A stretch of DNA of 32,000 nucleotides from Planctopirus limnophila DSM 3776. GTDB taxonomy: Bacteria > Planctomycetota > Planctomycetia > Planctomycetales > Planctomycetaceae. Positions 1 through 29,764 of the stretch are shown here, one piece after another. The DNA lies in assembly GCF_000092105.1 (NCBI RefSeq), contig NC_014148.1, forward strand, positions 720,001-752,000, read 5' to 3'. The position numbers were made by a program, and so were the translations under genes. The notes below the pieces were generated by a model that made no database searches, was not told where the DNA came from, and was given only the letters and a program-made list of their open reading frames with translations. The number at the start of each line of letters is the position of its first letter. Position 1 is the first letter of the stretch.

Positions 1-263
1 TTTCCTAGATTACCCAGATTTTAGATTTGGTGGTTGTACGCAGGAATATTCTGGAAATCGACGAGTCGTAAGGTTGGGAATGGGTAACTCGTCAGTTTTT
101 ACGAGAAGACGGCACAATCCGTGCAATTGAAGGATTTTTTCTCGTACATGCCTACCCATGAGTGCAAAATGAAACAAACGCGAGAAGTCGGGCGGAATTC
201 TGCCTCAGACTCGTGCATTGTGCGCAAGTGATGGCTCCTGAATATCCAGAAGAATTCCTACGA

Positions 264-303
264 CCGGTAATGTCGAGTTACCGGCCAACCCCTTCGGGTT
301 TTT
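264..303 (+). terminator. Candidate tandem hairpins with a T-run. This could be the intrinsic terminator of an off-window upstream gene, or a 5' leader structure of the giant gene.
   Basis: CCGGTAA(264-270)/TTACCGG(278-284) form a 7-bp stem with a 7-nt loop. It is followed directly by AACCC(287-291)/GGGTT(296-300) with loop CTTC, running into T299-T303. Confidence 0.3.
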
Positions 304-423
304 CCCTCACGTAGAGTTCGTGCCTCTGAGGGAGGGCCGCGATGTGGTTCGATGACCTAGTTTGTAAGTGATGGGGCCATGACTGAGGACAGGATACGGA
401 GTTCCTGCCGTCGCTTAAGGCCC

Positions 424-428
424 GGAGG
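424..428 (+). promoter_or_regulatory. Shine-Dalgarno-like ribosome binding site for the giant ORF
   Basis: GGAGG lies 6 nt upstream of ATG 435. An in-frame TGA at 384-386 leaves no earlier ATG or GTG, so the start cannot be extended upstream. Confidence 0.6.
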
Positions 429-434
429 TTTTTC

Positions 435-3400
435 ATGTCAGTGACCCAATGGCTGCAGAATCTTGTGGCCTCCAAACAACGCGATGTGGCGACCTGTCTG
501 AAACCAGGCAGTCTGCGCTCGACCCTCCTGCAGGTCGAGCCGCTGGAGGAACGTCGCGTCTTCAGTGTGACCCCCGTGCTGAATGGAAGCGTACTGGAGA
601 TCACTCTCGATGCTGACGGAGACACCGCCTATCTGCGAACTGACGATCTGAATAACGAGCTAGAGGTATACGATCAAACCAACACACTGATTGATTCATT
701 CGATTACAGCACGTTTCATTCGATCAGTTTGATTGGTGATGGTGCGAATAGTGGGGTGCAGACAGTTGTCTTCGACAATTCAACCTCATTGAATCTGGCG
801 GGCGACATCACGACTTCAAGTGATGATATTGAGATCATCAGTATCAATGGCGATTTGAACCTCACAGGGGAATTGTCGCTGACTGTCGGCGAGTCAATTT
901 TTGTTGGCACGAATCGCATCGTATCCGCAGATGACGGAATTTCGCTCCTTGCTTTGAGCGGAACGAACGCAACAGAAGTTAATCTGGCTGCCGATTCGTC
1001 ACTGACGACACTTGGAAAGATTGAGCTTCGCTCTGATGCCGGTGATATCCATGCGGGATTTTTGACTGCGGGCGATCAGATTGAAGTGGTGGCACAGGAT
1101 CAGATCACGTTCGCCAGTGACATCGCCTTTACGACGAGCGGAATCGTCAATCTGGCTGTTACATCCACTTTGGGCGATATTGAACTCAACGGTTCGATTG
1201 ATGCAGACTCTTCGACGGGTGGGGCTTATCTGTTTAACCTCGGGCCTTCGGGAACGCTGTTCCTGAATGGCGATATTCACGCACCGGCTTCTGCGGGGCA
1301 GACCACAGTCGATGGGAATCTGACATTCGGAAATGGTTTCAGTTTCGATCAGTTCTTTCTCACGGGGAGTACGCCGAATGGTGACTATGACACCACGGGA
1401 AGTGCGTTTCTGGTAACGGGTGCCAACCGTGTGGTCGATCTGGGGAATGCAGACTTTACGTTTACCCGAGAGCCCGGCTATCTGGCTGTTGTCGGGGATC
1501 AGTTTCAGGTGATTGCGCTGGCCGACTCCAGCAGCAGCATCACCGGGAATTTCTCCAACCGCTCAGAAGGGGATGAATTCTATAGCGAAGGGGTGCGTTA
1601 CAAGTACTCTCAGGCTGGCGGAGATGGTAACGATGTCGCACTGACGATCCTTTCGCCGACCACCGTCTGGGTCGATGACGACTTTGCCGCACTGTTGAAT
1701 GGCGATGATCCTGCCGGGCCCAGAGTGATGTTTGGTTACGACAGTTTTGCTCTCGTTCAGCAGGGTGTCGATCAAGTGGCAGATATGGGTCTGGTCAATG
1801 TCGCCGCCCATGCCACCAGCTATAACGAAGAGGTCGTCGTTACTGGAAAATCTCTCACGCTCGTTGGCGAGAGCGCCAGCACCACCACCATTTTCTCCTC
1901 CACAGGAACAGCGTTTTCAGCGAGCAACGCAGCTGACATCAGGCTCGAACAGTTGACGTTCTCAGGTGTGAATTCGTTGGACTTAAGTGCCATTGATGCG
2001 ACAACACTCACGAATATCACCACGACTGGTCCGGCAACCATCACAGGCACACAACTGATATTGATCAGTGACGGAGCCTCGAATGATGTGTTCACCATTA
2101 ACGATAGTGGTATCTCATCCAGTGGCTTGCTGATAATCGACCAACTCGATTTCACCGTGGATACTTTGGAAGTTGACGCCGGTGATGGCGATGATCAGAT
2201 CTTTGTGCGTCCCCAGCCCAGCACGACAATCCTGATTGATGGAGGAGATGGAGTCGATACGCTTGAAGCCGACTTCTACGGGCTCTATGGGTTTGCGAAT
2301 ACGCCCGACGGGATGATTGCCGGGGCTGGTGCGTTGACTGCTGCGGACAGGGAGGACGTCACCTACGCCAGCATTGAAAACTACAGCGCATTGGTTGAAG
2401 CCAATGCGGTCATTGTGGCGCAGAATCCCGATGACAACGTCGCCGACAACTGGCTGGTCAAACGCAGTGACAGCGACCCCTCGATTCTCGAAGTCTATGT
2501 AAATGGTGTGCTCGCCTTCCAGCAGGATTATGCGAGTACCAACAGCCTCACAATCAACGGCTCAGGTGACGACGACACTCTGGTGATGGATCTGTCCAAT
2601 GGCGAGATCGATCTCGCGGGCGGATTGCATTTCAATGGCGGGAATGGAAACGACGCCATTGAGTTAAACGGCAGCCAGACTTTCACGAAAGTGACACACA
2701 CTTTCGTCAGTGAGAATGACGGTTCGATTGAAGTCATCGGTAATGGAACCACCAGCATCTCTTACACCGGGCTGGAACCAATTGTCGATAACCTCTCGGC
2801 GACCACGCGCGAGTTCATCTTCACTGGCGGAAACGAGACGATCAGTCTCACTGACGACGCAGCGGCTGGTTACAACCTGATCGATTCATCGCTCAGTGAA
2901 TCGGTTTTGTTTCTCAATCCGACCGACACGCTGATTATCACCGTGCAAAATGGGACGGATACGTTCACAGCGAGTTCGCTGGACGCCGCCTTTGGGGCGA
3001 ACATCTTCGTCACCATGGACGACGCTGACAGTGCTGGCGCAGACGCACTGATTTGGAATGCGGATACGACACTGGGTTCGGTTCTTGTAGCCGGAACGTT
3101 TGAGTTGGTCGTCGAGACAGGCACGATCGACATGAACGCTGCCGTCGACAATACGGCCGGTGGTGGCAGCATTCGGCTCGAAGCCAGCGACGGCATTACT
3201 CAACAGGGCAGTTTAACCACAGCCAGCAATATCACCATTGCCAGCACTGGCGGAACAGTGACGACGGAACTGCTGGAGGCCACTGATGCCGTCAGCGAGA
3301 TCACGATCACGGGAACATCGGTTACACTCGCAGGAAATGTGACTTCGGGAAGTCTTGTTGATATTACGGCCACTGCAGGATCAATCGAACAGACAGGTGG

Positions 3401-6400
3401 CCTCGTCACGTCGCCAACACTGATTCTCGATGCCCAGACAGGAATCTTCGGCACGACGGCGATGGTGGCCCGTGCGATGGAGATCAGTGCCAGCACGATT
3501 ACCGCCAAGACCAACACCGGCGGCATGCAAGTGGAAAACGCCGCGACGACAGCGACGACAGCGACTCTCACTGCGACAACAGGCAATATCCTTTTCAACC
3601 AGACGGGAGGCCAGTCGCTGACGCTGACCAACGTTGCCACCAGCGGCAACGCGAACCTCACCAACAACGCTACTATGACGCTCAACTCGGCGCTGATCAG
3701 CGGTTCGGGGGAACTCACTCTCGAAGGGACCCAAGTCATTTTGGGTGGCAATATCACCGCCTCTGGCCGGGCGACGATCACTGCTACTGATTCGATCACC
3801 CAGACCGCCGGGACCCTCACCTCGCCGATCCTCGAACTCGATGCCCAGAACGGTATCGGTTTAGCCGCTGACGCGATGGAAATCAGCACCAGCGACATCA
3901 GCGCCACCACGGCAACGGTAGGCGTCTTTCTGTCCAACGCCTCTAATATCACGACGGGAGCTGTGACAGCGAGCAATCTGCAGGCAACGACAAGCGGCAA
4001 CATTTCGTTCGTGCAGACGGGTGGTCAGAGCCTGAGTGTGACGAATGTGTCGACGACCAGCGGCGATGCGACGATTTCGAATGCGGGAGATCTGACTGTT
4101 GCAGCGGCGATGGTCCTGGGGACGAATGGTCAGCTGTCGTTGACGACGACCGCCGGTGGCAATCTCTCGCTGGGAACGGCCACGACGGACGGGAATCTGC
4201 TGGTGACGAGTGCGGGTGCATTCACGCAGACAGGAAACACGACGGTCGGCGGCCTGCTCGATGTGGATGCCGTGAATGCGATCGATATTCAGGGAACGCA
4301 GGGGATTACGGGCACGACCTCGATCACATCGTCAGGTTCCACCGTTCGTCTGCGACAGGCGTTGACATCGGGTGGAGCGGTGACACTGGCGGGAACTGGC
4401 GGCATCACACTGGATGCGACGGGGGATGTGACATCGACGGCTGGCGGTATCACGATCATTGGCGATCTGACCACAGCGGCAAATCTCGTCACTGACGATC
4501 AGCCGATCGAGGTGCAGGGGAATGTGCTGCTGACGGGCAGTGTGCTGTTCGACAGCGACAGCACGAACACCGGCACCGGGGCCGATGTGACGGTCACCGG
4601 CGATATCGACCTGGCGACGTTCACACTGACAATCGACGCGGGGCCGGACGGTGATTTCTCGGTGGGGGATGTGACGGGGACGACGGGCGATCTGGTGATT
4701 GAAGAGGCTCATAGCCTGTCGTTTGGTTCGCTGACGGCCGACACGATCAACATCGGGCCGATCACAGGTGATGTCACGATTGGTGCGGGAGGCTTGACAG
4801 CGAACAGTGCCAGCTTCGATCTGGACGGCAACTTCACGAATAGCGGTGCGACGAATGTCACCAATCACCTGCTGGTGCAGGCGGGAGGCTCGATCGAGTT
4901 CGTGGGTGATGTGGAAGCGGGTTCGTTGGAACTGGATGCGGGGACGACGATCGACCTGGGGAACGTGGTTGTCGATACCACGACAGTCCTCACGAGTGTT
5001 GGGGTGCTGACTGTCGGCGGTACGCTCAATACGGGCGGTACGCTGACCGTGGAATCGACGGCGGGCGATGTCCGGTTCGTGCAGACCGTGACGGCCGGGG
5101 GCGAAGTGCAACTCACCGCCGATCAGGAACTGCGGCTCGACAACCTATTGACGGTCACCGCAGGCGGAGCGTCGCTGACGGGTGCCACCGTGCTCTTGGA
5201 CAACGCCACCATCGTGCAGCTGAATGGTGCCGGCGATGACCTGTCGATCACCGGGACGCTAACGACAGGTGCCAATCTATTCACGACCGGCGGCGATATC
5301 ACGATCACAGGGAACACGACACTCACTGAGGGAATCAATGTTGGCTCGACGGGGGGGGATATCCTCTTCAATGGCCTTGTTACTGGTGCCGGTTTCGACT
5401 TGAGCATTGACTCAGCGGCAGGTTCGTTGGAGTTGGGCGGCGCGGTGACTGCGGTGGACGATCTGGTCCTCAAGGGAGCTTCAGTTACTACGCTTTCGCT
5501 GTCGGCGGCGACATTGAATGGGACAACGACAGCCGGCCCCTGGGAAACAACGGGCAACATCACCATCACGGCGGCGATGGAACTGGATGCCACTGGCGGT
5601 CTGTCGATCATCGGCAGTATCAGTGCGGGGAGCCTGCAGGCTGTCGCGACGGGAACATCACTCTTCACCGGCACCATCACGACCACGACCGGCAATGTGA
5701 TTGTCGGCACGACCACAAGCGGGGCGATCGACTTCCAGGACGACGTGACGAGTGCCGGCAATGTGACAGTCACTTCTCTGGGGGCTGTCGACTTCGGAGG
5801 CCATCTCTTTGCGAATGGTGTCACAGGTACCATCGAGGTTATCGGAGCGTCGGTCGATTTCGCGGACGATGTGGAAGCCGCGACCAGCATTGAGATCACG
5901 GCCAACACAGGAGCAATCAACCAGACTGGCGGGACATTCACCACGCTGACGCTGATCTTGGATGCGGGAGCAGGCATCGGCACGACCGGCGTGGTCAACA
6001 CTAGTGCCCGGACAATCACCGCCACGACCAACACCGGCGGCATCAACCTCGCCAACCTCTCGACGGTCACCAATGGAGCCGTGACCGCCACCCTCACGGC
6101 CACTACCAGCGGCAATATCCAGTTGGTGCAGACGGGTGGCCAAGGCCTCACGATCACGAGCGCTGAAACCAACAACGGCGATATCGTGATCTCGAACACG
6201 GGGGCGAACCTTACGGTCACCACGGCCGAGGCTTTGGGTGCGGATGGCGACATCACCCTGAGCACCATTACCTCGGGCAACCTGGAACTGGGGACTGCCG
6301 ATGCGACGGGCGACCTGAACATCACCAGCGCGGGGAGCTATACACAAAGTGGCAATGTCGAGGCGGACGGGTTGGTTGACATACAGTCGGATGATCTGCT

Positions 6401-9400
6401 GCTCACCCAGGGAACAGTCACCGCTGGTACCACGATCAACCTCGAATCGACCAATGGCGGCATCGAAGTTCAGCAGGCGGTCGAGGCCGATGGAAATGTT
6501 GATCTGCAGGCCCTAAGTAACATTCTACTGACGGGAAGTGTCACAACGGCCAGCAACATCACCATTGAAAGTACTATTGGCGACATTACCACAGCTGTAT
6601 TGACTGCGACCGGCCTGACGAGCGAAATCCGTATCAATGGGCAAGACATCAGCCTGGGTGGCGATATCGATGCCGGATCTCTGGTGTCGATTTTTGCTGG
6701 CGACCGCATCAATCAAACAGCCGGAACGATTACATCACCCACATTGGTACTGGATGCACTTTCAGGGATTGGCACCATATCGACCATTCAGGTGGCATCG
6801 AACAATATCGATGCGAAAGCAAGTTCCGGCCGCATCTTCCTGGTGAATGACTCCTCTGTACTGACAGGCGGAGTGACGGCTATCCTGCAGGGAAACAGCG
6901 GAAACATTCAGTTCACCCAAACGGGTGGTCAAGAGCTGACAGTCACCTCAGCCACGACGACTGTCGGCAATATCACGCTCTCCAACGACGGCGCTGATTT
7001 GAACGCGAATAATACTACGACGTCGTCAGGTGGTATATCACTCTTAACAACGACATCCGGCAGCATTACGGCCGGTCTTGTCGGTTCTGGTGGCGGCAGT
7101 GGTGCCATTTCCATCATCAGTGCTCAGAGTGTGACGACGACTAACCAGATCATTACCGACGGCACGATCGTCATCACCGCCGGGACGACCACGGCGGATG
7201 ACATCATCCTTGGCGGAAATCTGCGTGGGGCCGGTGGACCAAATCAGCCAGTTTCCATCACCCTGACTGCCGGCGGGAAGATCGACTCCATTGGTTCCAT
7301 GACGACCAACGGGTTGTTGCAGGCCGAGGCGGGGACCTCGATAGAGATCGACGGCACCATCACCGCCAACGCCCTCGATCTTACGGCGGGAACCACCGCC
7401 CTCGACAGCATCACACTGGGTGTGGTCGATGTGAATACCACGACCAGTCTCACAAGTGGCGGTGCTCTGCAAGTCACCGGGAACTTCGACACGGGGACCA
7501 CGACGACGATCAACACGGGGAGTGCGACGTTCTCGGGGACGTATCGTTCGGGAAATCGTACGGAACTCACATCGACAGGTGATGTCCTCTTTGAGCAGAC
7601 GCTCAATGTCGATGGCGGGGGAATGGAACTCTTCGCCACCGGGACGACGACTTTCTACGCCGCAGTGACTGTCGTGGGAGATGCCCTGATTGGAGATTCC
7701 CTCACCGGTGGGACAGTCCAGGCCCAGGGTCCAGTCGATGTCACGGGCTGGCTCACGATCAACAGCCAGGACAACGTGCTGCTCGATGACACGGTGGATG
7801 TGGGTGGCGACCTGGTGGTTCATGCCGGCAGGGATGGGACGGGAGATCTGGTGATTGGTGGGGATATCGGCGTTACTCGCACACCCACCGGCATCACGCT
7901 GACAGCGGGTGACCTGATCGATGTTGCTGGCTCGATCACCACGACGGGGCTGAGCGGCAACCTGTTCCTGACGAGCGGTACGACAATGACGTTGACTGGG
8001 CCGGTCAATGCTTCGGCGGAAGTGCGGCTGGAGAACTGCGGCCTGTTGTCGATTACTGATCCGGCAGGCATCACGGCGGCTGGCCGAATCATGCAGGCGG
8101 GGGCAGGAGATGTCAGCCTGCATGGGAACATCACTTCGACCAGTGGTGAGGTGAATTTCGCTGAAGATGTCGTGCTGACGAGCGATGTGGTTGTTACTTC
8201 TGGTAGCAGCATCACCTTCCAGAAGACAATCAACGGGACCACTGCCGGTAGTGAAGACCTGACGCTTGATGCCACCACGACGGTAACTTTGGGCGGGGCT
8301 GTCGGAGCGGTAACGCGACTCGGTGTGCTGACCATCGATGGCACGACGGTGACGACGGCCGGGATCACAGCTGCCGCCCTGGATGGTGAGACGACGAGTA
8401 GCGGCAACTGGGATACCACGGGAGATGTGGACATCACCGGTCTGGCGAAGGTCATCGCAGCGGGCAGCTTCACACTGACAGGGAACCTCAACGCCGCTGA
8501 AGTCGAAGCCACTGCCAATAGCGACCTCACCATCACGGGCACAACCAGCACTTCGGCGGGTGGAGATGTCACGCTCACCACCCTCACCACAGGTAATGTC
8601 GAAGTTGGAGCCATCGATGCCGACGGCGATGTGCGAGTCACGACTGTGGGGAGCTATACCCAGAATGGGAACGTTGAAGCGGCCGGGTTGATTGACATTC
8701 AGTCGAATGGTCTTCTGCTCACGGTGAGGACAGTCACAGCTGGCACCACGCTCGACCTGGAATCGACCAACAATGCCATTGAGATTCAGCAGGCTGTTTC
8801 GGCAGGTGGCAATATCACGTTGATTGGCAGCACTAACGTGACTCTTGGCGTCAATGGTGATGTGGCCGCAACGAATGCGGGGAGCACAATCACTGTCACG
8901 GGCGACCTGACCACGGCTGGCGATCTGGTCACCAATAATGGGGCCATCCTGATCAACGACGATGTGACGCTGACGGGGAACGCCAAGTTCGACAGCAACT
9001 CATCGGACGGCGTGGGTGGCGGGGCGGATATCACCGTGAGTGGCGCCGGGGGCATTGACCTGGGCGCGTTCACGCTGACCATCGATGCCGGGTTTGTCGG
9101 TGACTTCGCGACGGATCTCGTTACCGGGACGCCATTGAGCGCACTCGTGATCACGAATGCCCAGGATGCGTCGGTGGGCACGGGGAACTTGACCGCGGGG
9201 ACGGTGACCATCGATCTGGTGGGTAACTTCACCAATCACGGCACCGCGACTGTGAACGACCTCATCGATGTGGCGGCTGGTGGCAACATTCTATTCCAGC
9301 AGGCGATCGATGCCGAGAGTGTCGATCTTTCCGCCAATGAAGATGTCACGCTGAATGGCGATGTGACCGCCGTCACGAGTGTGAAGATGGTTGCGAATGC

Positions 9401-12400
9401 GGATGGGACGTTGCCCGGTGGCAATGTGACGACGCAGGCCATCACCACTTCGGGACTCTCTTCGACCATTGAACTGCGGGGCGATGCGGTCGATCTGGGT
9501 GGCGACATCGAAGCGGGTGAGTCGGTGCTGGTGGTCGCGACCAGCGGTGCGATCACACAACTGGCGGGAACCACGATCACCACGGACAATCTGGGCCTCT
9601 TCGCGGCAGGCGATATTGGTACAGGGCTGCAGTTCTTCCAGACGGATGTGAATCGGTTGGCCGTCCGTTCGACGAGCGGCGATGTGTTCCTGGAGAACGC
9701 CAGCGATCTGGAAATCGGCGGAGTGACGTTCGAGAGCTTCACGGGAGCGTCGGCAGTCAATCTGACCGTCAACGTCGTCGCTGGTGCGCTTAATGTGAGC
9801 GGCAACGTCAACACGACCGACGACATCACGTTGGACGCCACGAGCGGCATCACAATCTCGGGAGATGTCCTTTCCACCGGTGGCACGATCCTTCTCGACG
9901 CTGACAGCGATGCCGACGCTAACGGTGTCTTCAACGTGACAGCGACCGGATCGGTGGAAGCAACGTCCGAAGCGATTCGTATCACGGCGAGTGATGTCAT
10001 GCTGGCTGGTTCGCTGACAGCCAGCGGCGCCGGAACGTTTGGCCCGAATAACGCTCCAGTTGGTTTTGTCGAGATCCGCCAATCGACGGCTGCAGCGACG
10101 ATTGGTCTGGGATTGGCCGCTGGGGATCTTTCACTGGATGCGGCCGAACTGGCCAATATCACCACCAATCAACTGATTGTCGGGCGGACAGATGGTGGCG
10201 ATGTATCGATCGCAGCAGCGGGTAATCTTTCCCCGCACATCGGGACGCTGGTGCTGCTGACAAACGGGAATGTGGCGGGGGCGGTCGATGGCTCGCCGGA
10301 TGTCTCAGTGGGTCAACTGGCCATTGTCGCCGGTGGGCAGGTGGCGCTCGACTTCGATGTCACCACGCTGGCGTTAAGTGCCGGGAATGCGGTGACGGGA
10401 CATGTGCTGCAGGATACGGCCGGGAGCCTGACGATTGGTTCGCTGGCTGAAGCGGTCGGCGGGACGCTGGTCGCCGGTGTGCAGACGGGGACAGGGCAAA
10501 CGACCATCGAAGCGCTGGGCGGGGACACGGGCGATCTGATTATCAACTCGCTCATCGTGGCGGGCGGGAACAGTCTGACACTGATGGCCGATGACGATGT
10601 GACGGTGAACGCCGATGTAACGCTGGCGACGGGCACCCTCGTCATCGAGGCCGATGCCGATGGCAGCAGCAACGGCGAGATCACGATTGCCAGTGGTGCG
10701 GATGTGGCCGTCACTTCGGGGCTGGCAACTGACAGCATCACACTTTGCGCCGCCGACCTGGATGTGGCAGGGACTGTTAATGTCGGTCTGGGGACGGTCG
10801 AGCTCCTCACCAGTACCGCCGCAGGGACATTCGGGCTGGGTTCGGGAAGTGGTAGCTACGAAGTGACGCAGTCGGAACTGGATCAGATCACAGCCAACCG
10901 GCTGCTGGTCGGATCGGCCACCAAGACCAACGCGGGGATCGAACTGGGGGATGTGAGCTGGAGCGGCGCGGGGAAGGAAGCCCGCCTGACAACCGACGGC
11001 GCGATCACTCAGGATGCGGGCTCGACGCTCGCCATCACCACGCCGACCCTGGTGCTCGATGCAGCGACAGGGATTAATCTGCAGGTGAATGCCGACAGTC
11101 TTTCTGCTCGCAATCGCACCAGTGGCGACATCGTGCTGGTCGATACCACTGGGGGGCTCACCATCGCCAACGATCTGGTCGTCGGTGGGTTGGTCAATCA
11201 GACGGCGGGCGGTGCGATCGATCTGCGAGTGGCGGCCAACACGCTCACCACTTTGGCCGGGGCACAGATCGCCACGAATGTCGGTCACATTAGGCTGCGG
11301 GCCGACGAATATGTGCTGGGCGCGGGAATCAACGCAGGGACGGAGACGGTTCTGCTGCAGAATGACACGGCGGGCCGGACAATCAGCCTGAACGGTGCGG
11401 CGGCGGGGATCAACTTGTCGCAGGCTGAACTGCAGGGGATTGTCGCCGGCACGCTGGAAGTGGGCCGGGCTGATACGGGAGATGTGAGCGTTGGCGATAT
11501 CGATGGGCTGAATGTCACCACGCTGGCGATCATCACCAACGGCTCAATTGAGCAGAACCTGACCAGTGTGATTACCGTCGCCAACCTGGCGCTGGTCGCG
11601 CAGACAGGCATTAACCTCACCACACGGGTCGATACACTGGCGCTGCGGAACGGGACGTCGGGTAGCGTGACCATCAATCAGGGGAACCGGGCGCTCACGC
11701 TGGGTGAAGTGAACCTCAAGGCCTCGACGGTGACGGGAACCACCCAGAACGGCAGTGGCGACCTGGAGATCACTGCCGCCAATAGTGTGACCATCACCGA
11801 AGAGATTACCAGCAGTGGCAACGTACTGATCGATGCGGTGGGTGCAATCAGCCAGCAGGCCGATATCGACGCCACCGGTGAGACAGTCACGCTGGAAAGC
11901 GATGCGACCATCGGCATGGCCAGCGGCACCAGCATCACGGCGACCAGTGCGACACTGACGGCAGTGGGGGACGTCACTCTGGCGGAAATTGTCGCGGGGA
12001 CGATCGAGGTCACTTCAACGGGTGGTTCGATCCAGGATGTGGATGTCTCCGACAGCACGGTCAATTTGAACGCCGGGGCGGGTTCGATCACGCTCGCCGC
12101 TGCCACGGGAATCGGCACGACCGGCGGGGCGGCGGGAACGCTCGAACTCAGCGGCAAGACAATTAGCGCTACCAGCACAAATGGCGGCATGAATCTGTCC
12201 AACGCCTCCAATATCACGACGGGAGCTGTGACAGCGAGCAATCTGCAGGCAACGACAAGCGGCAACATTTCGTTCGTGCAGACGGGTGGTCAGAGCCTGA
12301 GTGTGACGAATGTGTCGACGACCAGCGGCGATGCGACGATTTCGAATGCGGGAGATCTGACTGTTGCAGCGGCGATGGTCCTGGGGACGAATGGTCAGCT

Positions 12401-15400
12401 GTCGTTGACGACGACCGCCGGTGGCAATCTCTCGCTGGGAACGGCCACGACGGACGGGAATCTGCTGGTGACGAGTGCGGGTGCATTCACGCAGACAGGA
12501 AACACGACGGTCGGCGGCCTGCTCGATGTGGATGCCGTGAATGCGATCGATATTCAGGGAACGCAGGGGATTACGGGCACGACCTCGATCACATCGTCAG
12601 GTTCCACCGTTCGTCTGCGACAGGCGTTGACATCGGGTGGAGCGGTGACACTGGCGGGAACTGGCGGCATCACACTGGATGCGACGGGGGATGTGACATC
12701 GACGGCTGGCGGTATCACGATCATTGGCGATCTGACCACAGCGGCAAATCTCGTCACTGACGATCAGCCGATCGAGGTGCAGGGGAATGTGCTGCTGACG
12801 GGCAGTGTGCTGTTCGACAGCGACAGCACGAACACCGGCACCGGGGCCGATGTGACGGTCACCGGCGATATCGACCTGGCGACGTTCACACTGACAATCG
12901 ACGCGGGGCCGGACGGTGATTTCTCGGTGGGGGATGTGACGGGGACGACGGGCGATCTGGTGATTGAAGAGGCTCATAGCCTGTCGTTTGGTTCGCTGAC
13001 GGCCGACACGATCAACATCGGGCCGATCACAGGTGATGTCACGATTGGTGCGGGAGGCTTGACAGCGAACAGTGCCAGCTTCGATCTGGACGGCAACTTC
13101 ACGAATAGCGGTGCGACGAATGTCACCAATCACCTGCTGGTGCAGGCGGGAGGCTCGATCGAGTTCGTGGGTGATGTGGAAGCGGGTTCGTTGGAACTGG
13201 ATGCGGGGACGACGATCGACCTGGGGAACGTGGTTGTCGATACCACGACGGTTCTCACGAGTGTGGGGACATTGACCGTCGGCGGCGACTTCGACACAGG
13301 GACGACCTCAGATATCTCCAGCGGCGATGTGACGTTCGTCGGCACCTACCGCTCGGGTGGGCGGACGGAGATCGCTTCGACCGGGAATGTGCTGTTCCAG
13401 TCGACGCTGGATGTCGACGCGGATGGACTGGAGATCATCGCTGACGGGACGACGACGTTCGATCAGGCCGTCACAGTCGTTGGCAACGCGGTCATTGGCG
13501 ACACGAACAGTGGCACGGTGCAGGCGGTGGGCTTGGTGGATGTGGCAGGCGATCTGACGATCATGACGGCGGGTGACATCGATCTGGATGACACGGTCGA
13601 TGTGGGTGGGAACCTCCTGTTTGATGCGGGGCAAAACGTCAATGTGGCGGGTGCTACTGATGTCGTGGGTAATGCGACGGTCACAGCGGACGACGATATC
13701 GACTTCGGCAGCACGCTTGATGTGGGTGGGGTATTGAGCCTGACGGCGGGAACGGCCAACACGGACGACATCCGGCTGGCAGGGAATGTGGGTGCCACGC
13801 GGACGCCGACTTCGATCACGCTGGATGCAGGTGGGTTGATCCAGGCATTGGGGACGGTGACCACGAGTGGGCTGTTGGAAGCCGATGCGGGGACTTCGAT
13901 TGAGGTGCAGGGGCTCTTGACGGCCAATGCGCTCGATCTCGATGCCGTTACCGACATCACGCTGGACGATGTGAGTGTGATGACGAACAGTCTGCTGCGG
14001 GCGGGCGATGCGATTCTGGTGAACGGGACGTTCAATACGGGTTCGCTGGATGCGGTGGCTGCTGGGACAACGACGTTTAATGAAGCCGTCACGGTGACGA
14101 CGGGGAATGGGGTCATCGGCGACGCGACGAGCGGAACGGTGCAGGCCTTGGCAGCGCTGGATGTCAGCGGCGATCTGACGATCACGACGGCGGCTGATAT
14201 TGATCTGGATGGGACGGTCGATGTCGGTGGGAACCTGCTGTTTGATGCGGGGCAGAACGTCAATGTGGAGGGTGCCACGGATGTGGTGGGAAGTGCAACG
14301 GTCACGGCGGACGACGATATTGACTTCGGCAGCACGCTCGATGTGGGCGGGGCGCTGAGTCTCACAGCGGGTGTGGCCAACACGGACGACATCCGGCTGG
14401 CAGGGAATGTGGGTGCCACGCGGACGCCGACTTCGATTACGCTGGATGCAGGTGGGTTGATCGACGCTTCGGGGACGGTGGCGGCGGGGGGAATTCTGAC
14501 GGCCGATGCCGGGACTTCGCTGAACTTCGATCAGGCGGTCACGACGACGGGTGCGGGGAGCGACATCCTTCTGACCAGTGGCACAACGATGCGGCTGGCG
14601 GGAGCGGTGAATAGCAGTGGCGAAGTCGAACTGGACAACGGTGGGCTGCTCTCCATCCTCGATCCCGCCGGAATTACAGCAGCAGGCCGAGTGGTGCAGA
14701 TCGGGACGGGGGATGTGAGTCTGCATGGGGACATCACTTCGACCAGCGGTGAGGTCAACTTTGCTGAAGATGTGGTGCTGACGAGCGATGTGGTCGTAAC
14801 CTCGGGGAGCACGATCACCTTCCAGAAGACCATCAACGGCACAACAGCCGGTGCGGAAGACCTGACACTCGACGCGGTGGGTGATGTGACCTTGGGCGGG
14901 GCTGTCGGCAACACGACCCGACTGGGCGCGCTCGTCATCGAAGCGGCTGCCGTCTCCACCCAGGCACTGACGGTCGCCTCGCTCGACGGTACTTCGCAGA
15001 CGGGGAACTGGACAACCACGGGGAACATCGACGCGACGGGGGCCGTGCTGCTGGAGGTGGCAGGGAACCTCGACATCAATGGCAACCTGGAGGCAGACAG
15101 CCTCGATGCAGTAGCCGACGGGACTTCGCTGTTCGCGGGGACAGTCGATGTCACGAATAACGCGGTGATCGGGGCGGCGACTTCCGGGGCGGTGACGATC
15201 AACGATCTCGTCACAGTCGGGGGCGATCTGACAGTCCGCTCAGCTGACGACATCACAATTGGAGATGGACTGCTCACCGATGGAATGGATGTCACCGGGG
15301 CTGTGGTTATGAATAGTGTCAGTGGTGATGTCACGGTGCGGGGCACCACCGAGGCGGGTTCGCTGAATACGAACGCGGGGAATGACATCCTCTTCGACGG

Positions 15401-18400
15401 GTCGGTCACGACGGTCGGCGGGATGGTGCTCACCGCCGGTCAGGATATCGACGTGACGGGGGCAGTCGATGCCGGGGCGACCTTCAGCGCGACGGCGACC
15501 GCTGGTGCGATCTCGCTGGATAGCACGTTGACCACGGGGGCTGCCGCCGATTTGACGAGCGGGACGACGACGACAGTGCTGGGTGTGGCATCGATCGATG
15601 GCAATCTGGATGTGCTGGCGGGGGACACGATCCGTTTTGCCCAGACTCTGGATGCCACGGGTGCGGTGACACTGGAAACAGGGGCAAGCGCCACCGACGA
15701 GATCCTGCTGGAGGGTGCGGTTGGCGGCGTGGCCAGCCCGACTTCGATCACACTGACATCCGGCGGCAAGGTGCTGGCTTCGAGCCGCGTGACAACGAGC
15801 GGCACGCTGGAAGCCGATGCTGGAACTTCGATCGAGGTGCAGGGACTGCTCACGGCCAATGCGCTCGATCTGGATGCCGGGACGGACATCACGCTGGACG
15901 ATGTGCTGGTGACGACGAGCAGTCTGCTGCGGGCGGGCGGCAACATCGAAGTGAACGGGACGTTCGACACCGGTTCCTTGGATGCGATCGCGGGGGGGAC
16001 GACGACGTTCAATGACAGTGTCACGGTGACGGCGGGGAACGCGGTCATCGGCGATACGAACAGCGGGACGGTGCAGGCACTCGACTCGCTGGATGTGGCA
16101 GGCGACCTGACGATCACGACGGCGGGTGACATTGACCTGGACGGCACGGTCGATGTTGGTGGGAACCTGCTGTTCGACGCGGGGCTGAGCGTCAATGTGG
16201 CCGGGGCCACCGATGTGGTCGGTGCTGCGACCGTCACGGCGGACGACGACATCGACTTCGGCAGCACGCTTGATGTGGGTGGCGCACTGAGCCTCACAGC
16301 GGGAATGGCCAATACGGATGACATTCGATTGGCGGGGAATGTGGGTTCCACTCGGACACCAACTTCGATCACGCTGAATGCGGGGGGATTGATCCAGGCG
16401 TTGGGTTCGATCACGACCAGCGGGCTGTTGGAGGCTGATGCCGGGACTTCGATAGAAGTTGTGGGGGATCTGGACGCGGGTTCTCTGGAACTCGACGCCG
16501 GGACGACGATCGATCTGGGGAACGTGACAGTCGATACCACAACAGTCCTCACATCGGTAGGAACGCTGACTGTCGGTGGCGACTTCGACACGGGGACGAC
16601 TTCGACCATCTCCAGCGGCGATGCGACGTTCACGGGGACCTACCGTTCGGGCGGACGGACGGAGATCGCTTCGACGGGGAATGTCTTGTTCCAGTCGACG
16701 CTGGATGTCGACGCGGATGGACTGGAGATCATCGCTGACGGGACGACAACGTTTAGTCAGACGGTCACGGTCGTCGGCAACGCGGTCATCGGGGATACGA
16801 ACAGCGGAACGGTGCAGGCGTTGGCAGCGCTGGATGTGGCAGGCGATCTGACAATCACGACGGCGGCTGACATTGATCTGGATGGCACGGTTGATGTCGG
16901 TGGAAACCTGCTGTTTGATGCGGGGCAGAATGTCAATGTGGCGGGTGCTACTGATGTCGTTGGTAATGCGACAGTGACGGCGGACGACGATATTGACTTC
17001 GGCAGCACGCTCGATGTGGGCGGGGCACTGAGCCTGACGGCGGGAACGGCCAATACGGACGACATCCGGCTGGCGGGGAATGTGGGTGCCACAAGGACGC
17101 CGACTTCGATCACGTTGGATGCCGGTGGTTTGATCCAGGCGTTGGGGACGGTAACGACCAGCGGCACTTTGGAAGCCGACGCGGGAACTTCGATTGAGGT
17201 GCAGGGGCCACTGACGGCTGACTCGCTGGATCTCGATGCCGTGACGGATATCACGCTGGATGATGTGGATGTCACCAATGCGAGCGTGATCGCGGCGGTG
17301 GGCGATCTGCTGGTGAATGGAACTTACGATGTCGGGACGACCAGCACGATCACGGCCAACGATGCGACATTCGTCGGTGCCTATGAAACAGGTGGTCGGT
17401 CGGAATTGGATCTGACGGGCGACTTCGAGGCCCAGTCGACGTTCACAGTGGTCAGCGGCGGGTTGGAGCTGCTGGCCAACGGAACGACGACATTCGTGGG
17501 CGTGGTGGAGATCACAGGTGCGGCGGTCATCGGCGAACTGACCAGCGGGACGATTAACGCGCAAGAGACCTTCACGGTCACCGGCGGCGATCTGACGCTC
17601 CAGAGTGCCGACGACATCGACTTCGACCGGGCGCTGGATGTCTCGGGTGCGATTGTCGCCACTGCCGGGAACGACTTCCTGGCCCAGGAGACAATTGACG
17701 CCGCTTCGCTGACAATCGATGCCTCGCGGGATGTCCTGATTGATGGAGCGGTGGCGACCAGCGGACTGGTGGATGTCACCGCCGGTCGCGATGCGGTCTT
17801 CGGCGATACGCTCGATGCGGGGACGACACTCACGGTGAAGGCGACGACGGGCGATGTGAGGTTTGTGGGGGCTGTCACCGCGGGTAGTGTCGTGGTGGTG
17901 ACGGCGACTGTCGGCGAGATTCGAGTTGATGATCTGCTGACGGTCACCGACGGCTTCGTGCTGCTCGAAGGCTCAAGTGTTCTGCTCGATAACGATACCG
18001 TGGTTCAACTCAACGGTGCAGGACGCGGCCTGACCATTTTGGGGACGCTCACAACGGGTGCCGATCTACTCACGAATGGCGGAGACATCCTTACGGGCGG
18101 TGGCGGCATGACCTTGACCGATTCCATCACGATTGAGACTGCCGGAGGGAATCTCGAATTCAACAGCACTATCAATGGGCAAGTCGCCAGCACATTCGAC
18201 CTGACGATTGATACGGATGACGGCCGCGTGGATTTCAACAATTCCGTGGGCGACATTAACCCTCTCAGGAATCTGGTCATCAGTGAGGCTGGAGATGTGT
18301 TGCTGACCGATGTTCAAGCCGATTTGCTGAGTATTGCGGACAGCTCAGGCACAGTCACTTTTGTTGGTGATGTGATCACAACCGCAGCCAATGGACTGGA

Positions 18401-21400
18401 TGTGACGGCCGAGGCGATCGTCATGCTGGCGGGGAGTTCGCTGAACTCGACCGGGCAGGATGTCGTACTGACGGCGAACGATATCGACCTGAACGGCGAT
18501 GGCATCACAGCCACCGGGGTCACTGTGTTCCTCCAGACTCGTGACGACGCGACGGCCATCGGGCTGGAGAACTCCTCCACGGCGATGAACTTCACCGATG
18601 CCCAGCTCGACAAGATTCTTTCAAATAGCCTCGTTATCGGGACGGCGACCAACACGGGCGGAATCACCGTCGGCACCGATGCTCCGCTGACGATGAATCA
18701 ACCCGAGGTGCAACTGCTGACGGCTGGTGATGTGACAGTGAACGGCTCGCTGACGGTTCTGGGGACGGGGACACTCGCGGTCGATGCGGGTGACGATGTG
18801 GCGGTCTTCGGGACGCTGGCCACCACGAACGGTGCGCTGGTCGTGAACGCGGACGACAACATCACGATGGGGGCTGCGGGACGTGTGACGAGCACGGGTG
18901 GAACGATCACTCTCGCCGCCGATGCTGATCTGAATGGAGCCGGCTCGTTCACCATGACGAACGGCGCCATTGTCGAATCGCAAACGCAGTTGGTGACGAT
19001 CACGGCGGCGGGTAATGTGACTGTCGGTCAGGTGATCTCCGGTCGAACGGGTGGGCTGGCAATCGATGTTGTGTCGCGAAACGGCGCGATCATCGATGGT
19101 GGCGACACGGGGGGCTCGGATCTGATCGCCAACGGTGCGGGGGCGATCACGCGGCTCGATGCGGCCACGGGGATCGGCAGTGCGACGGGTCTGGCAAGCG
19201 ATGCCGCCCTGGAAACCACGGTTTTTGAGCTTCAGGCGACCAACCGCACGAGCGGCGACATCCGCATCGACGAGACCGATGCCTTGCGGCTGCAGGATAT
19301 CGACAACCAGGGGCCGGGGGCCATCGCCGTTCAATCGGTTGGGACGATGACGCTGCTGACGGGCTTTGATGTGACTGCCGCCAGCGGTCTCGTTTCGCTG
19401 TTGGCGACAGGTGCGGCGGCCGATCTGCTGCTCAACGGCTCGGTCACGACGACGACGAGTTCGATCACGCTGGGAGCGGGTCGGAATGTGCAGTTCAGTG
19501 GTGTGACGACCATCCAGACGAACGGCAACATCGGGATCACGGCGACGAACGGCACAGTGCGGATGCTCAACGGCTCGGTGGTGAATGCGGGAGCCGGGAC
19601 GATCGCCGTGACGGCTAATGGAGATGTCAGTATTTCGCGACTGGTGACAACAAACGCGACGACGAGTGCCGTACAGATCACCTCGCAAACCGGTGGCATT
19701 CGTGATAGCGGCGAAAGTGGTGGGGCTGATATTCAGGCCGACAGTGCAGGGGCCTTGGTCACCTTGAGGGCCGCGACAGGGATCGGCAGCGTTTCCGATG
19801 GCGGTGCCGATGCACCACTGGAACTGCAAGTTGCTCGACTGGATGCGATCAACAGCACCAATGGCGATATTCGGTTCAGCGAAGCGACGGGGCTGAACAT
19901 TGAACGCCTGACTCAACAGGGAGCGGGTCAGATCGAGGGTGTGGTGAACGGGGCCACGATCATCACCGCGGCGGGTCAGGGGATCAGCAGCCAGACGGGG
20001 GACATCTCGCTCACGGTGAATGGTGCCGACGCGGATTTGACGGTGCTGAACAACGTCTCCACGACCGGCGGCGACATCACCCTGAACGTGCGGGGGGATG
20101 TCACTGCAGCGGCAAATGTGACGATCGCTTCGCAGGGCGGGAACATCGTCATCGCGGCGGACAGCGATCTCAACAACGTGGGTGGAATTGCCTTGGCGGA
20201 TGGCTCGTTGATCGATGCTGGTGCGGGGACGATCGTGCTCTCCGCCGCCGAGAACATCGCGGTGAGCCGGCTCGTCTCGACGAATGCCGGGGGGGCGGCG
20301 GTGTCGCTCACTTCGCGGCTGGGGGCGATCACCGATGCGGGGGACACGGGCGGCGTGGATATCGACGCACCGACAGTGGTGCTGCGGGCCGCAACAGGTA
20401 TTGGTTCCGGCAACGCCCTGGAGACGAACATCGCCACGCTCGCTGCACGGAACACGACCAGCGGTGGCATTCAGATCGACAACACTGCTGGGGCTGGGCT
20501 GAATGTCGCAACAGTGGATGGACTGACGGGAATCACGAACGCGGGGGCCAACGGGCTGGTGTCGCTGGTAACGTCAGGGGATGTCTTCATCAACGGGGCG
20601 GTGCTCAATACGGCGGGGGGGACGATCGAGATCACTTCGCTGACCGGGGATATCACTCTCAACCAGCGGTTGGCAGCCAAGGGAGGGAATGGTTCGATCT
20701 CTCTGGATGCGGATGAGGATATCAATCTCAACGACACGGGTTCGCAGCCAGATGTGGAAGTTCAGGGAGCGGGGAGCGTGGTGGGTGTCGCCGGTGGTCT
20801 GGTGAACTTCGCACCAAATGTGCAGGTGGCCAGCCAGACGGGGGCGGTGACCGATGTGCCGCCGCTCTTGATCAATGTGCAGACACCACAGGTGCAGGCG
20901 GATGGTTCGGCACAGGTCTCGGGGACTTTTGGCCGTCCGGGCGAGAAGAATTTCATCATCACAGTCGACTGGGGCGACGGGACTGTCGAGACGTTCTATT
21001 TTGATCAGCCGGGGAACTTCCTGTTCAAGCATACTTACAACGGCAATCCGGATCCGAACAACCCGGCTTCACCAATCCCGATTACAGTGACGATCGAGCA
21101 GGATCCGCTCATCCGCTTCTTTGAAGCCCGCGTGGTGGAACAGAACACGACGACGGTTACGAGTTTCGCGAGCGTGCCGGGCGAAGGATTGGCGGGAAGC
21201 ATTCCGTTCGATCTGACGCCACCGGTGCGGCCCGTACCGGAACCAGCGCAAACAAGGCTTGATGAAGCGCTCTTATCGCAGAGTGTCGGATTGAGTCTGA
21301 GTGATGTCCTGCAGGATGAAAGTACTGCCGGCGAAGCTGTTGGTGACGATGAGATCCAGGTTGTGATCCAGGTGCTTGGTGCCGATGGAGAGGTTCTCCA

Positions 21401-22364: not shown

Positions 22365-25300
22365 ATGTTGAGATGTCCGAGCTGTGGAACGAGAGTTACG
22401 GGAGCAGATCTCGTCAGTGGGATCTGTTCGCGCTGCCATAGCCGCTTGAGTGATGAAAACGACCATTCTGAGCTTGAGAGTGATACTCTCGACACCATGC
22501 TTTCCGATCCGGGAATCGTTGAGCCTGCGGCAGCCTCGGATGATTCGCTCGATCTTTCTGGAGCGGGTCACCCATCATCCGCATCGCTGGCACAGCCTGA
22601 GAAACCTCTGCCGGAAAAACCATCGGACTCGGCCATGGCGACCCCTGTTTTGCCAGGGGAAACGATTTCGCCACCGTTAAGAACTCTGGATGCCAGTGCG
22701 GTCGAATTTACCCCGATTGAGTCTTTGAAGAAAGATGCGGGAGCCCAAGGTTCACCGGTGGCTGGACGGGAGACACCCGACGAGTTTGACAATGGCGGTC
22801 GCACGATGGTGATTGCCGACAGCTCGGTCTTCTTTGCCGACTCGGCAGATATTGTCGTCCTGCCAGAAGATTCCGGTTCGCTGGGCGATTCTGCAGATGA
22901 CAGTTCCTCAATCGGCCAGACGCGGGCATCTGACGATGAAGATGTCCGCATGGTGACGGAAGAGAGTATCGATCTTTCCGGCTCCGTTGATCTTTCGGGA
23001 CCCGGTGATCAGACGATGATCTCTGATGAGTTTCCAGACCCGGCTAATGGCCCGGCTCATGGTGAAACTTCAGACGATTTTCTGCCTGCAAAACCGGCGG
23101 CTCAAACGCTCGCGATTGGTACTCCGGAAGGAGAAGCCGACGACAGCTACATGGCCACGTATGTAGCTGATGATGAAGCAGAACGAGTTCAGCAGGAAAG
23201 GGCCGATGCGGGCGCGACGTATGTGGGCCCGGAGTTTGCCGATCTGGAATCAGGAGATACCGCCGCGACGTTTGTCTCGGATGATGTTCCTGAGGCCATT
23301 ATTAAAACGATCGCCTCAGTCTGGGGAGATGAACCTTCCGGGAATGACGTTAAGCCTGTGACGAGCCTGAAGGGTCGGGAAGTTAAGCGTATTCCTGGTC
23401 CTCGCCAGACGCTGGTGATCAAACATCGCTCGTTGACGCATGGGCCAGGGCCCAAAGTTGGATCGGATCAGGCGGAGTACGAAGTCATTCGTATTCTTGG
23501 CGAAGGTGGTATGGGGGTGGTCTACGAGGCCAGGCAGACCTCGGTGGATCGCGAAGTGGCCGTCAAGATGCTGAAATCAGCGTCGGCCAAGAATGAGCGT
23601 CAGCGGCAGAAGTTTCTGGCTGAGGCGGTCGTTACGGGTGATCTCGAACATCCGAACATTGTTCCGATTTACGATGTCGGATCGGCCAAAGATGGCTCGC
23701 TCTTCTACTCGATGAAAAAAGTTCAGGGGACACCCTGGCTGAAAGTCATTTCGAAAAAGTCACTCATCGAGAATCTGGAGATCCTGCTCAAAGTGGCCGA
23801 TGCCGTGGCATTTGCCCACGCCCGGGGAGTGATTCACCGCGACCTGAAGCCCGAAAACGTGATGCTGGGTGAGTTCGGTGAAGTGCTGGTCATGGACTGG
23901 GGGCTGGCACAGCCTTCGGCGGCCTTCCGGCGGAAAGACAGCATTGTCGAGAACACGACCATGGGCGGGACTCCCGCTTACATGGCACCGGAAATGGCCA
24001 CAGGGCCGATCACCAAAGTCACTCCCCAAAGCGATGTGTATCTGCTGGGAGCCATCCTTTTTGAAATCTTGACTGACATGCCGCCGCATGCAGGCAAGAC
24101 GGCTATGAAATGCCTCATGGCTGCAGCGAGAAATGAGATTGTCGAGACTGATCAGGAAGGGGAATTGATTGCCATTGCGTTGAAAGCGATGGCGACAGAT
24201 CCGAATGACCGATATCAGTCGGTGATGGATTTTCAGGCGAGTATCCGCGAGTACCTGTCACACTCGGAGAGTGTGCAGATGACGGTGCGGGCCGAAGATG
24301 ATCTCAGTGAAGCGGGTCGCCTGGGGGGATATGAAGGGTTTGCCAAAGCCCTCTTTGGATTTGAAGAAGCTGTCGAGCTTTGGGATGGAAACCTGCGGGC
24401 CAAACAGGGCGAGCGGAAAGCCCGTCTGGCTTATGCCAACTTCGCCATTGAGAAGGGTGATTACGATCTCGCGAAGTCGCTTTTGCACCCGACGGAAGCA
24501 GAACATCAGCCGCTGATCAAACTGATCGACGAGGCAGTGGCCGAGCGGGAAGGTCGGCAGCAGCGCATTCGCTTATTGAGACGCACTGCCAGCGTGCTCG
24601 TGGGTGCCGTCGTCGTGGTGGTGACCATTGCGTTCTTCTGGATTCGAGCCGAAGCCAATCGAGCCATGCTTGCCGAAAAAGATGCCACTAAACAGCGGGA
24701 TGTGGCCGTCAAGAATGAAGAGGCGGCGAAGCTGGCTCGTGACGACGCCGAAGCTCGTCGCAAAGAAGCGGAACTGGCCAAAGAACAGGCAATTATCGCG
24801 AGAACAGCGGCTCAGACGGCAGAAATGCAGGCCCGTGAAGCTCAGTCTGTCTCGGAGAAGGAGCGGGCGAAAGCTGAGTTAGCCCGCATGGCCGCCGAAA
24901 AGGCCAAGGCCAGTGAAGAGTACGAAGCCTATATTGCCAGAATTGGTCTGGCCTCGGCAAAGATCAATGAGAATGCTTTTGCGACTGCCAAAGAATTGTT
25001 ACTGGATTGCCCCACCTACCTGAGGAATTGGGAGTGGGGGCGATTGATGCATTTATGCAGCCAGCAATCGAAACAGATTCAAGCCGGTTCGCCACTGGAT
25101 GCACTGGACATACAGCATGAAAAAGGATTGTTTGCCACCGGTGGCTGGGATGGAACAGCACGGATCTTTCAGTTGAAAGATGGGGCTCCGAAGAATGTTC
25201 TCAAAACTCAGGGTCAGTATGTACATGCTGTCGCCTTCCAGCCCCAGGGAGATCTGATCGCCTTAGGTGGCAGTGAAGCGGGAGCGTATCTGCAGCTTTG

Positions 25301-28732: not shown

Positions 28733-29764
28733 ATGATGCGCGCACTCCAGCTTGTTGAACCGAGAGCTTTCCAGTTCATTGAAATTCCTGAAGTGGCAGA
28801 GCCGGGTGCAGGTGAAGCTGTGGTCGAAGTGCATCGTGTGGGAATTTGCGGCACAGACCTGAGTGGGTATCTGGGGAAGATGCCTTTCTTTTCGTATCCA
28901 CGCATACCGGGACATGAACTGGGTGTGCAGGTGCTGGCTGTGGGTGAGGGTGTCACCAATGTTAAGCCGGGGGATAAATGCTCGGTCGAGCCTTACATCA
29001 ATAACCCGGAGAGTTTTGCCAGTCGCCGAGGACGGGGGAACTGCTGTGAAGAGTTAAAGGTTCTGGGTGTGCACACGGATGGCGGATTGCGGCGGCGATT
29101 TATTGTTCCTGCCCGCAAGTTGCACCCTGCCCAGAAATTATCGTGGGAGCAGTTAGCACTCGTCGAGACATTAGCGATTGGATGCCATGCGGTCGATCGC
29201 TCGATGGCGCAGCCTCAGGAAGATGTGCTGGTGATTGGAGCCGGGCCCATTGGACTTTCCGTCATTGAGTTTGTGAAGCTGTCGCAGGCGCGTGTGATTG
29301 TGATGGACATGAATGCCCAGCGGCTGGCTTTCTGCCGGGATGTGATGGGAGTTCGTAATACGATTCTATCCACCGGGGATGGCAAAGAGCTGCAAGAACT
29401 TGAAAAGCTGACTGATGGGCATCTGGCGATGGCGGTCATCGATGCGACAGGTTCAGCCCGATCGATGTCGCAGGCCTTGCAGTATGTGGGGCATACGGGA
29501 CGACTCGTTTATGTAGGCATTACGACTGATGTCCTCTCGTTTGGGCACCCCCTGATGCACCGCCGGGAAATGACGATCATGGGTTCGAGAAATGCCATGC
29601 CTCAAGATTTTGGGCGCATTATTGATCATATTGAAGCTGGGCGGATTGATACCCGGCCCTGGATCACGCACACGATTCCGTTTGACAATGTGATTGATGA
29701 GTTTGAGCGTTTCACCAAGCCAGAAACGGGTGCAATCAAAGCCATGATTGATCTGGATTGTTGA
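28733..29764 (+). CDS. Zinc-type medium-chain dehydrogenase/reductase (alcohol, sorbitol or threonine dehydrogenase-like), probably NAD-dependent
   Basis: The protein contains GICGTDL and GHE catalytic-zinc ligand motifs. It also has 'GVTNVKPGDKCSVEP' and a Rossmann motif VIGAGPIGLSVIEF followed by 'VIVMD'. The four-Cys structural-zinc loop is not evident, only NCCEE. The start could be ATG 28733 or 28736. Confidence 0.92.
   Translation: MMRALQLVEPRAFQFIEIPEVAEPGAGEAVVEVHRVGICGTDLSGYLGKMPFFSYPRIPGHELGVQVLAVGEGVTNVKPGDKCSVEPYINNPESFASRRGRGNCCEELKVLGVHTDGGLRRRFIVPARKLHPAQKLSWEQLALVETLAIGCHAVDRSMAQPQEDVLVIGAGPIGLSVIEFVKLSQARVIVMDMNAQRLAFCRDVMGVRNTILSTGDGKELQELEKLTDGHLAMAVIDATGSARSMSQALQYVGHTGRLVYVGITTDVLSFGHPLMHRREMTIMGSRNAMPQDFGRIIDHIEAGRIDTRPWITHTIPFDNVIDEFERFTKPETGAIKAMIDLDC

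Follow-up and report, generated by a model that had tools for sequence, protein, structure and literature searches.

Sequence comparison points to recurrent gene conversion between two modules of one giant gene in Planctopirus limnophila

Adhesins of the Alp/Rib, Aap/SasG, Bap and LapA types, from Gram-positive and Gram-negative bacteria, carry many short (about 80-130 amino acids (aa)), near-identical repeats arranged head to tail, and the copy number of these repeats varies between strains. In the Neisseria pilE/pilS, Borrelia vlsE and Anaplasma msp2 systems, many silent donor cassettes are located outside the expression site, and conversion creates diversity. Here, we describe two near-identical repeat copies inside one giant open reading frame (ORF) of the freshwater bacterium Planctopirus limnophila DSM 3776, in a stretch of 32,000 nucleotides (contig NC_014148.1, positions 720,001 to 752,000) that is called the window below. 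As in the tufA/tufB genes of Salmonella and the rrn operons of E. coli, paralogues within a genome are closer to each other at this locus than orthologues are between species (PMC5485169, PMC8022953, PMC6053082). Sequence comparison with two relatives points to recurrent intragenic gene conversion with concerted evolution in three lineages, and not to a fresh duplication, as the origin of this likeness.

The comparative material came from two scans. One relative, P. hydrillae JC280 (L003), was found in the genome scan, with one locus only in its genome, and the metagenome scan gave contig VFQR01001661.1 (L004), at 94.6% identity to P. hydrillae. The giant gene has an orthologue in each of them, with sequence resembling the 352-aa repeat module, R, at the same two sites, here called site 1 (copy 1) and site 2 (copy 2). 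The main features of the locus are listed below, with omega denoting the ratio of nonsynonymous (dN) to synonymous (dS) divergence.

435..22151, + strand: giant ORF, 7,238 aa (ORF list; omega 0.09-0.14 against the P. hydrillae orthologue)
3929..4984, + strand: repeat copy 1, 1,056 bp, codons 1166-1517, one mismatch to copy 2
12194..13249, + strand: repeat copy 2, codons 3921-4272, collinear from end to end with P. hydrillae L003 10001-11056
3944, + strand: the single difference, T in copy 1 and C in copy 2 (12209), codon 1170/3925, TCT/TCC, both Ser
4985..12193, + strand: spacer between the copies, 7,209 bp; the spacer plus one copy make an 8,265-bp unit
4985..5020, + strand: degraded homology directly 3′ of the tract, 28/36 (78%) identical to 13250-13285
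3930..4459, + strand: 5′ half of the repeat, shared by sites 1 and 2 in each of the three lineages, with homogenisation within every one of them
4460..4984, + strand: 3′ half of the repeat, which among the three lineages occurs at site 1 of the window genome alone

The values of omega indicate that the giant ORF is a real coding gene under constraint. An earlier note, made from the letters of the window alone, had reported that the two segments differ at a single synonymous position. A careful base-by-base comparison of 3929-4984 with 12194-13249 gave exactly one mismatch and no excess beyond it, and this mismatch is indeed synonymous, but it lies at 3944/12209 and not at 3943/12208 as the note had placed it. 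The remaining description in the note was borne out: the copies are offset by 8,265 bp (3 x 2,755), both are read in the frame of ORF 435..22151, and their two 352-aa translations are identical. Since both copies are coding and lie in a single ORF, an in-frame offset is to be expected and is no evidence of design. The longest exact match between the copies is 1,040 bp (3945-4984 = 12210-13249), whereas the longest exact repeat left in the window after removal of copy 2 is 63 bp. Exact repeats in the codon-shuffled giant gene reached only 14-17 bp, and chance similarity of the copies is thereby ruled out. Other modules of the gene are far more diverged, as the note had also claimed, since the second-best DNA pair within the gene is 86% identical over 819 bp and the nearest other protein paralogue of the 352-aa unit shows 35% identity; together with the 63-bp runner-up, these values make the 1,056-bp pair a true outlier in the gene. 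At its left edge, similarity between the two sites drops at once to ~48%, while at the right edge it fades gradually through 4985-5020. Only the 1,056 bp are shared, and the offset profile contains no other similarity at 8,265-bp spacing, which rules out a tandem duplication of the 8,265-bp unit.

Both copies were found in P. hydrillae and in the metagenome relative when the locus was compared among related strains, a check that the note had proposed. The spacing between the copies is 8,265 bp in the window, 8,286 bp in P. hydrillae and 8,283 bp in the metagenome relative. A long orthologous alignment joins window 5034-16459 to L003 2849-14262, and within it the full-length, collinear copy 2 of P. 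hydrillae is 87% identical to that of the window in DNA and 90% in protein. The window copies (W1, W2) were then aligned with the P. hydrillae copies (H1, H2) including the flanks, and informative sites were counted. A site was scored as an orthology site when W1 grouped with H1 and W2 with H2, and as a concerted site when W1 grouped with W2 and H1 with H2. The 130 bp left of the repeat contained 48 orthology sites and 0 concerted sites, the first 529 bp of the repeat contained 0 orthology and 55 concerted sites, and to the right of 4986 there were again 42 orthology sites with 1 concerted site. The probability of such a sorted site order arising by chance is about 1e-30 to 1e-39. Moreover, the same 529-bp core gave 61 concerted and 0 orthology sites between the window and the metagenome relative; for P. 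hydrillae against the metagenome relative, the counts were 10 and 0. Given that the flanks group by position while the core groups by genome, the two-site arrangement must be old and only the identity of the copies recent. These data give directly the mosaic grouping of the sites, the boundaries of the tract and how old the event is in relation to speciation. Such a pattern is typical of gene conversion with concerted evolution.

Divergence values lead in the same direction. Within genomes, the 529-bp core is 99.8% identical for W1-W2, 97.0% for H1-H2 and 99.8% for M1-M2 (the two copies of the metagenome relative), while between genomes it is 96-97% identical for P. hydrillae to the metagenome relative and 88% for the window to either of them. 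In the repeat codons, dS is 0.007 between the window copies as against 0.32-0.39 between species over the same codons, and the dN/dS of the segment between species is ~0.14. Since the copies scarcely differ even at synonymous sites (dS ~0), with this dN/dS, protein-level selection cannot explain their identity and is ruled out as its cause. The left boundary of the homogenised region is common to all three lineages (window 3929-3933), which fits with tracts running out where homology ends. At the position equivalent to 3944, copy 2 and each of the four copies in the relatives have C, indicating that T3944 is derived in copy 1. At sites 3933-3935, upstream of 3944, the window copies agree with each other and both differ from the relatives; the conversion tract must thus extend across 3944, with a later mutation as the simplest explanation for the T.

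Homogenisation within this gene is not confined to R. P. hydrillae shows a second case, in which L003 11669-12279 and 13598-14211 are 94.8% identical, while their window counterparts, 13863-14476 and 15806-16405, share only 78.5% identity. Of these counterparts, 13863-14476 is slightly nearer to both P. hydrillae units. A more distant relative (L005; Logan SRR25993461_1898, 1-3803) is ~70-77% identical in DNA to the giant gene of the window. It aligns with the window from 421 to 3939, stopping at the left edge of the repeat; its left flank is orthologous and 82-85% identical, and past 3939 it carries another module type, 62-64% identical to R, before the contig ends 272 nt on. The presence of another module in L005 at this place indicates that the position is a recurrent point of module exchange. 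The end of the L005 contig possibly lies at a repeat of its own.

The two halves of the repeat differ in their history. In the alignment of the 3′ half (columns 661-1262), W1 equals W2 and is 87% identical to H2, but only ~46% identical to H1, and site 1 of the relatives holds a different module of about 555 bp in place of the 3′ half. The length of site 1 is nearly the same in the two species (576 bp in the window, 4458 to 5034, versus 606 bp in P. hydrillae, L003 2243 to 2849), indicating that sequence was replaced and not inserted, whichever the polarity. Because the 3′ half is what differs at site 1 of the relatives, and because copy 2 is complete and collinear in P. hydrillae, copy 2 was likely the donor and copy 1 the recipient for this half, the opposite polarity being the less simple reading.

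Taken together, we consider that the identity of the two copies was produced by recent non-reciprocal homologous recombination, i.e., gene conversion, with two paralogous modules of the giant ORF as partners, and assign this reading a probability of about 0.85. The sequence of events would be as follows. Module R would have been present at both sites before the P. limnophila and P. hydrillae lineages split, and each lineage since then would have repeatedly overwritten one copy with the other, which amounts to concerted evolution. The latest tract in the window, 3929-4984, would have its left end at the old homology edge and its right end in the short stretch of weaker homology. Its 3′ half would either have replaced a module or have been preserved against replacement by one, the module at this place being the one that differs at site 1 of the relatives. 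Repair with one anchor in the shared 5′ half and another in the weakly homologous stretch 4985-5020 could have overwritten the module in between, and T3944 would have arisen in copy 1 afterwards. As for the enzymology, RecA-dependent repair of a break or a stalled fork, with the other copy as template, may be assumed by analogy with tufA/tufB. The resulting 1,040-bp identity would in turn permit an in-frame deletion or duplication of 8,265 bp by crossover.

Several points weigh against this explanation or parts of it. Both sites are sequenced in only three lineages, and the metagenome contig stops inside its own copy 2, so that the 99.8% identity of M1-M2 is perhaps partly an assembler effect. 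The module at site 1 of the relatives is 91-92% identical to a paralogue 1.4 kb (1,398 bp) downstream, and it may therefore itself be a secondary replacement; a full-length copy could then be ancestral and have disappeared from the relatives, without any gain in P. limnophila. Finally, the count of one mismatch depends on a 2010 Sanger/454 assembly with pseudo-reads and Illumina polishing (PMC3035269).

The last point leads to the possibility that the likeness is an artefact of assembly or polishing, with the real sites differing more, or with only one copy in the genome, and the sequence homogenised by collapse of 454 contigs, by the pseudo-reads or by polishing. The DSM 3776 genome was assembled from 4.8x Sanger (8-kb library/clones) and 19.1x 454 reads; the contigs that Newbler produced were divided into pseudo-reads of 1,000 bp, and Illumina data served to polish the consensus (PMC3035269). 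A stretch of 1,056 bp is longer than any read of that time, and independent short-read assemblies of DSM 3776 break within the giant gene at repeated 31-mers; in two public assemblies of this kind, identity to the window is 100%, beginning at 16997 in one and at 19968 in the other. A few true differences between the copies may have been lost in polishing. However, while it might mask a few single-nucleotide polymorphisms, it could not create the structure, and R-like sequence with orthologous flanks occupies both sites in two independent assemblies of the relatives. An artefact at site 1 would require two false joins, of which the one at 4984/4985 would have to arise, in frame, from no more than ~36 bp of sequence at 78% similarity, and the mismatch at 3944 reveals that the assembler held the copies apart near the left edge. 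A structural artefact is thus unlikely, and we regard an artefactual origin of the identity as a whole as very improbable. Of the three origins which the earlier note had offered, gene conversion is favoured by the orthologous flanks and the grouping of the core by genome, duplication is made very unlikely by the comparison, and an artefact appears unlikely.

Another explanation holds that the pair is a maintained recombination switch, in which selection keeps the copies identical and crossover between them supplies useful fibre variants of 4,483 or 9,993 aa within populations. The earlier note had derived these product sizes (7,238 minus or plus 2,755), and the arithmetic is correct. If true, this would be a length-switching contingency locus made from two dispersed repeats, unlike the usual tandem array, with short, normal (7,238 aa) and long fibres in clonal Planctopirus. 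With 1,040 bp of perfect identity between in-frame direct repeats, the copies should offer a good substrate for crossover and plausibly for RecA, the homogenisation recurs in three lineages, and a whole 741-bp unit by which the species differ (16081-16821) testifies to module-level length change in the gene. In contrast, no deletion or duplication allele was seen, the copies lie at nearly the same spacing in each of the three lineages, and no difference in the number of repeat copies was found among these lineages, each of which has both. The spacer is collinear with that of P. hydrillae (2,387 versus 2,384 codons) at dS 0.52 and dN 0.074, and its omega of 0.14 indicates that it is under purifying selection. 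The R-spacer-R arrangement has been kept through substantial divergence despite continuing homology, which speaks for a deletion product that is rare or selected against. Moreover, recurrent conversion needs no selection for switching, there are two copies only, no further repeats or signals of a site-specific recombinase accompany them, and the neighbouring genes encode a kinase-WD40 protein and a dehydrogenase. We therefore place very little credence in such a switch. The mechanism for fibre length variation that the note had put forward holds as a potential, given the identity between the copies, but actual variation of this kind finds no backing in the three lineages, with the spacing kept and the spacer conserved.

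A very recent duplication, in which P. limnophila would have gained a 1,056-bp insertion at a second site without earlier homology, agrees with the near-identity of the copies, the sharp left boundary, the lack of the 3′ 525 bp at site 1 in the relatives and the end of L005 orthology at 3939 with a different module next to it, but it is the hardest to credit, since site 1 of both closer relatives contains the 5′ 529 bp, bounded on the left at the same point, both flanks are orthologous, and the near-equal lengths of site 1 (576 and 606 bp) point to replacement and not insertion. For the 5′ half, the alignments have largely refuted it.

A length difference between the species lies elsewhere in the gene. 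An array of diverged 621- and 741-bp units with 62-89% mutual identity occupies window 13155-17300, and P. limnophila has there, compared with P. hydrillae, the extra 741-bp unit (247 codons, in frame) at 16081-16821. This unit explains most of the difference between 7,238 and about 7,003 aa in the two species. A 50-bp exact repeat (16977-17026 = 14304-14353) also falls in this region, and the Logan contig L001 starts at 16997, the first unique 31-mer after it, indicating that the giant gene fragments predictably in k-mer assemblies.

The product of the gene is an exact match to ADG66422.1 / WP_013108853.1 of P. limnophila DSM 3776 (exact-sequence look-up), where the 21.7-kb gene is located on the 5.42-Mb chromosome. 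NCBI names it 'hemagglutinin repeat-containing protein', a name without backing from Pfam or NCBIfam: Pfam gave no match at E <= 0.01 for the whole giant protein or at E <= 1 for its N- and C-terminal parts, and NCBIfam gave no match for any part of it. The 90% protein cluster of the giant is represented by a 180-aa fragment, which leaves the gene invisible to word-based homology searches. The protein is very long and rich in Thr, Gly, Ser and Asp. Its N-terminus reads LQVEPLEERRVFSV at the place where a classical signal peptide is expected, and at its C-terminal end a basic tail (RGRRLMRRLSGR) comes after a hydrophobic segment (VAIAGTIMLGGVAV). An AlphaFold model of the 352-aa repeat unit (predicted local distance difference test score (pLDDT) 93.4) shows an all-beta repeat fold of ~39 short, evenly spaced strands, which we read as a beta-solenoid. 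In a fold search of the PDB with this unit all matches were weak (E > 0.1), and many of them were beta-helix proteins, such as VacA p55, the HMW1 secretion domain, HpmA and a bacterial antifreeze protein. From the model, it is a fair inference that the giant protein forms a long fibre.

Regarding the surroundings of the gene, the GC content is 0.58-0.64 over 3-21 kb, within the giant gene, versus 0.50-0.56 over the initial 3 kb of the gene and over the genes downstream. Nearly all of window 1-32000 has positive GC skew, and the cumulative skew climbs steadily to 3.56. Directly downstream, 22365-27935 encodes a protein of 1,856 aa in which a Ser/Thr kinase domain (residues 372-590) is combined with many successive WD40 repeats; a gene for a zinc-type alcohol dehydrogenase follows at 28733-29764. 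In the P. hydrillae lineage, a 338-aa hypothetical gene (L004 2179-3195, minus strand) lies upstream of the giant gene, and no P. limnophila orthologue of it was detected in the protein database; the upstream neighbourhood (window 1-434) may thus differ between the species. The search with this gene did, however, lead to the more distant relative L005.

The locus offers a clean, datable case of intragenic gene conversion in a planctomycete giant gene. The evolution of such genes is little known, and short-read data routinely break or mis-assemble them. Module-level phylogenies and estimates of paralogue age are unreliable in these genes, because identity between modules reflects the last conversion and not the duplication. 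In addition, the repeat pair provides a place for measuring rates of conversion and deletion with long reads in a genetically tractable planctomycete.

Compared with the repeat adhesins, the giant protein is likewise a large, repetitive, surface-type protein with repeats homogenised at the DNA level and units in frame, and recombination would alter the length of the fibre. It differs from them in having two dispersed 352-aa copies with 2,403 unrelated codons between them and a copy number that is constant in three lineages. Copying, probably non-reciprocal, into an expressed gene for a surface protein is shared with cassette-based antigenic variation, but in the giant gene donor and recipient are both expressed, as parts of one ORF, and diversity is lost by conversion instead of being created; with only two copies, both inside the ORF, the locus does not fit antigenic variation of the cassette type. 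The great length, the Thr/Gly/Ser/Asp-rich composition, the all-beta repeat model and the weak beta-helix neighbours in the PDB (E > 0.1) recall TpsA proteins such as filamentous haemagglutinin (FHA). Unlike TpsA, the giant protein contains no TPS domain and no Fil_haemagg repeat, has no TpsB-like neighbour in the window, and ends in the hydrophobic segment and basic tail described above; membership of the TpsA/FHA family is thus without support.

The closest counterparts are tufA/tufB and the rrn operons, with which the locus shares discrete, kilobase-scale tracts that end at the limits of homology and recur in separate lineages. The partners here are, however, not separate essential genes but modules of one ORF, 8.3 kb apart in direct orientation, and in two of the three lineages they share only part of their length. 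Overall, the process is a known one and requires no new mechanism, and what the giant gene of P. limnophila adds is a new and unusually tidy instance of it in a planctomycete giant gene.

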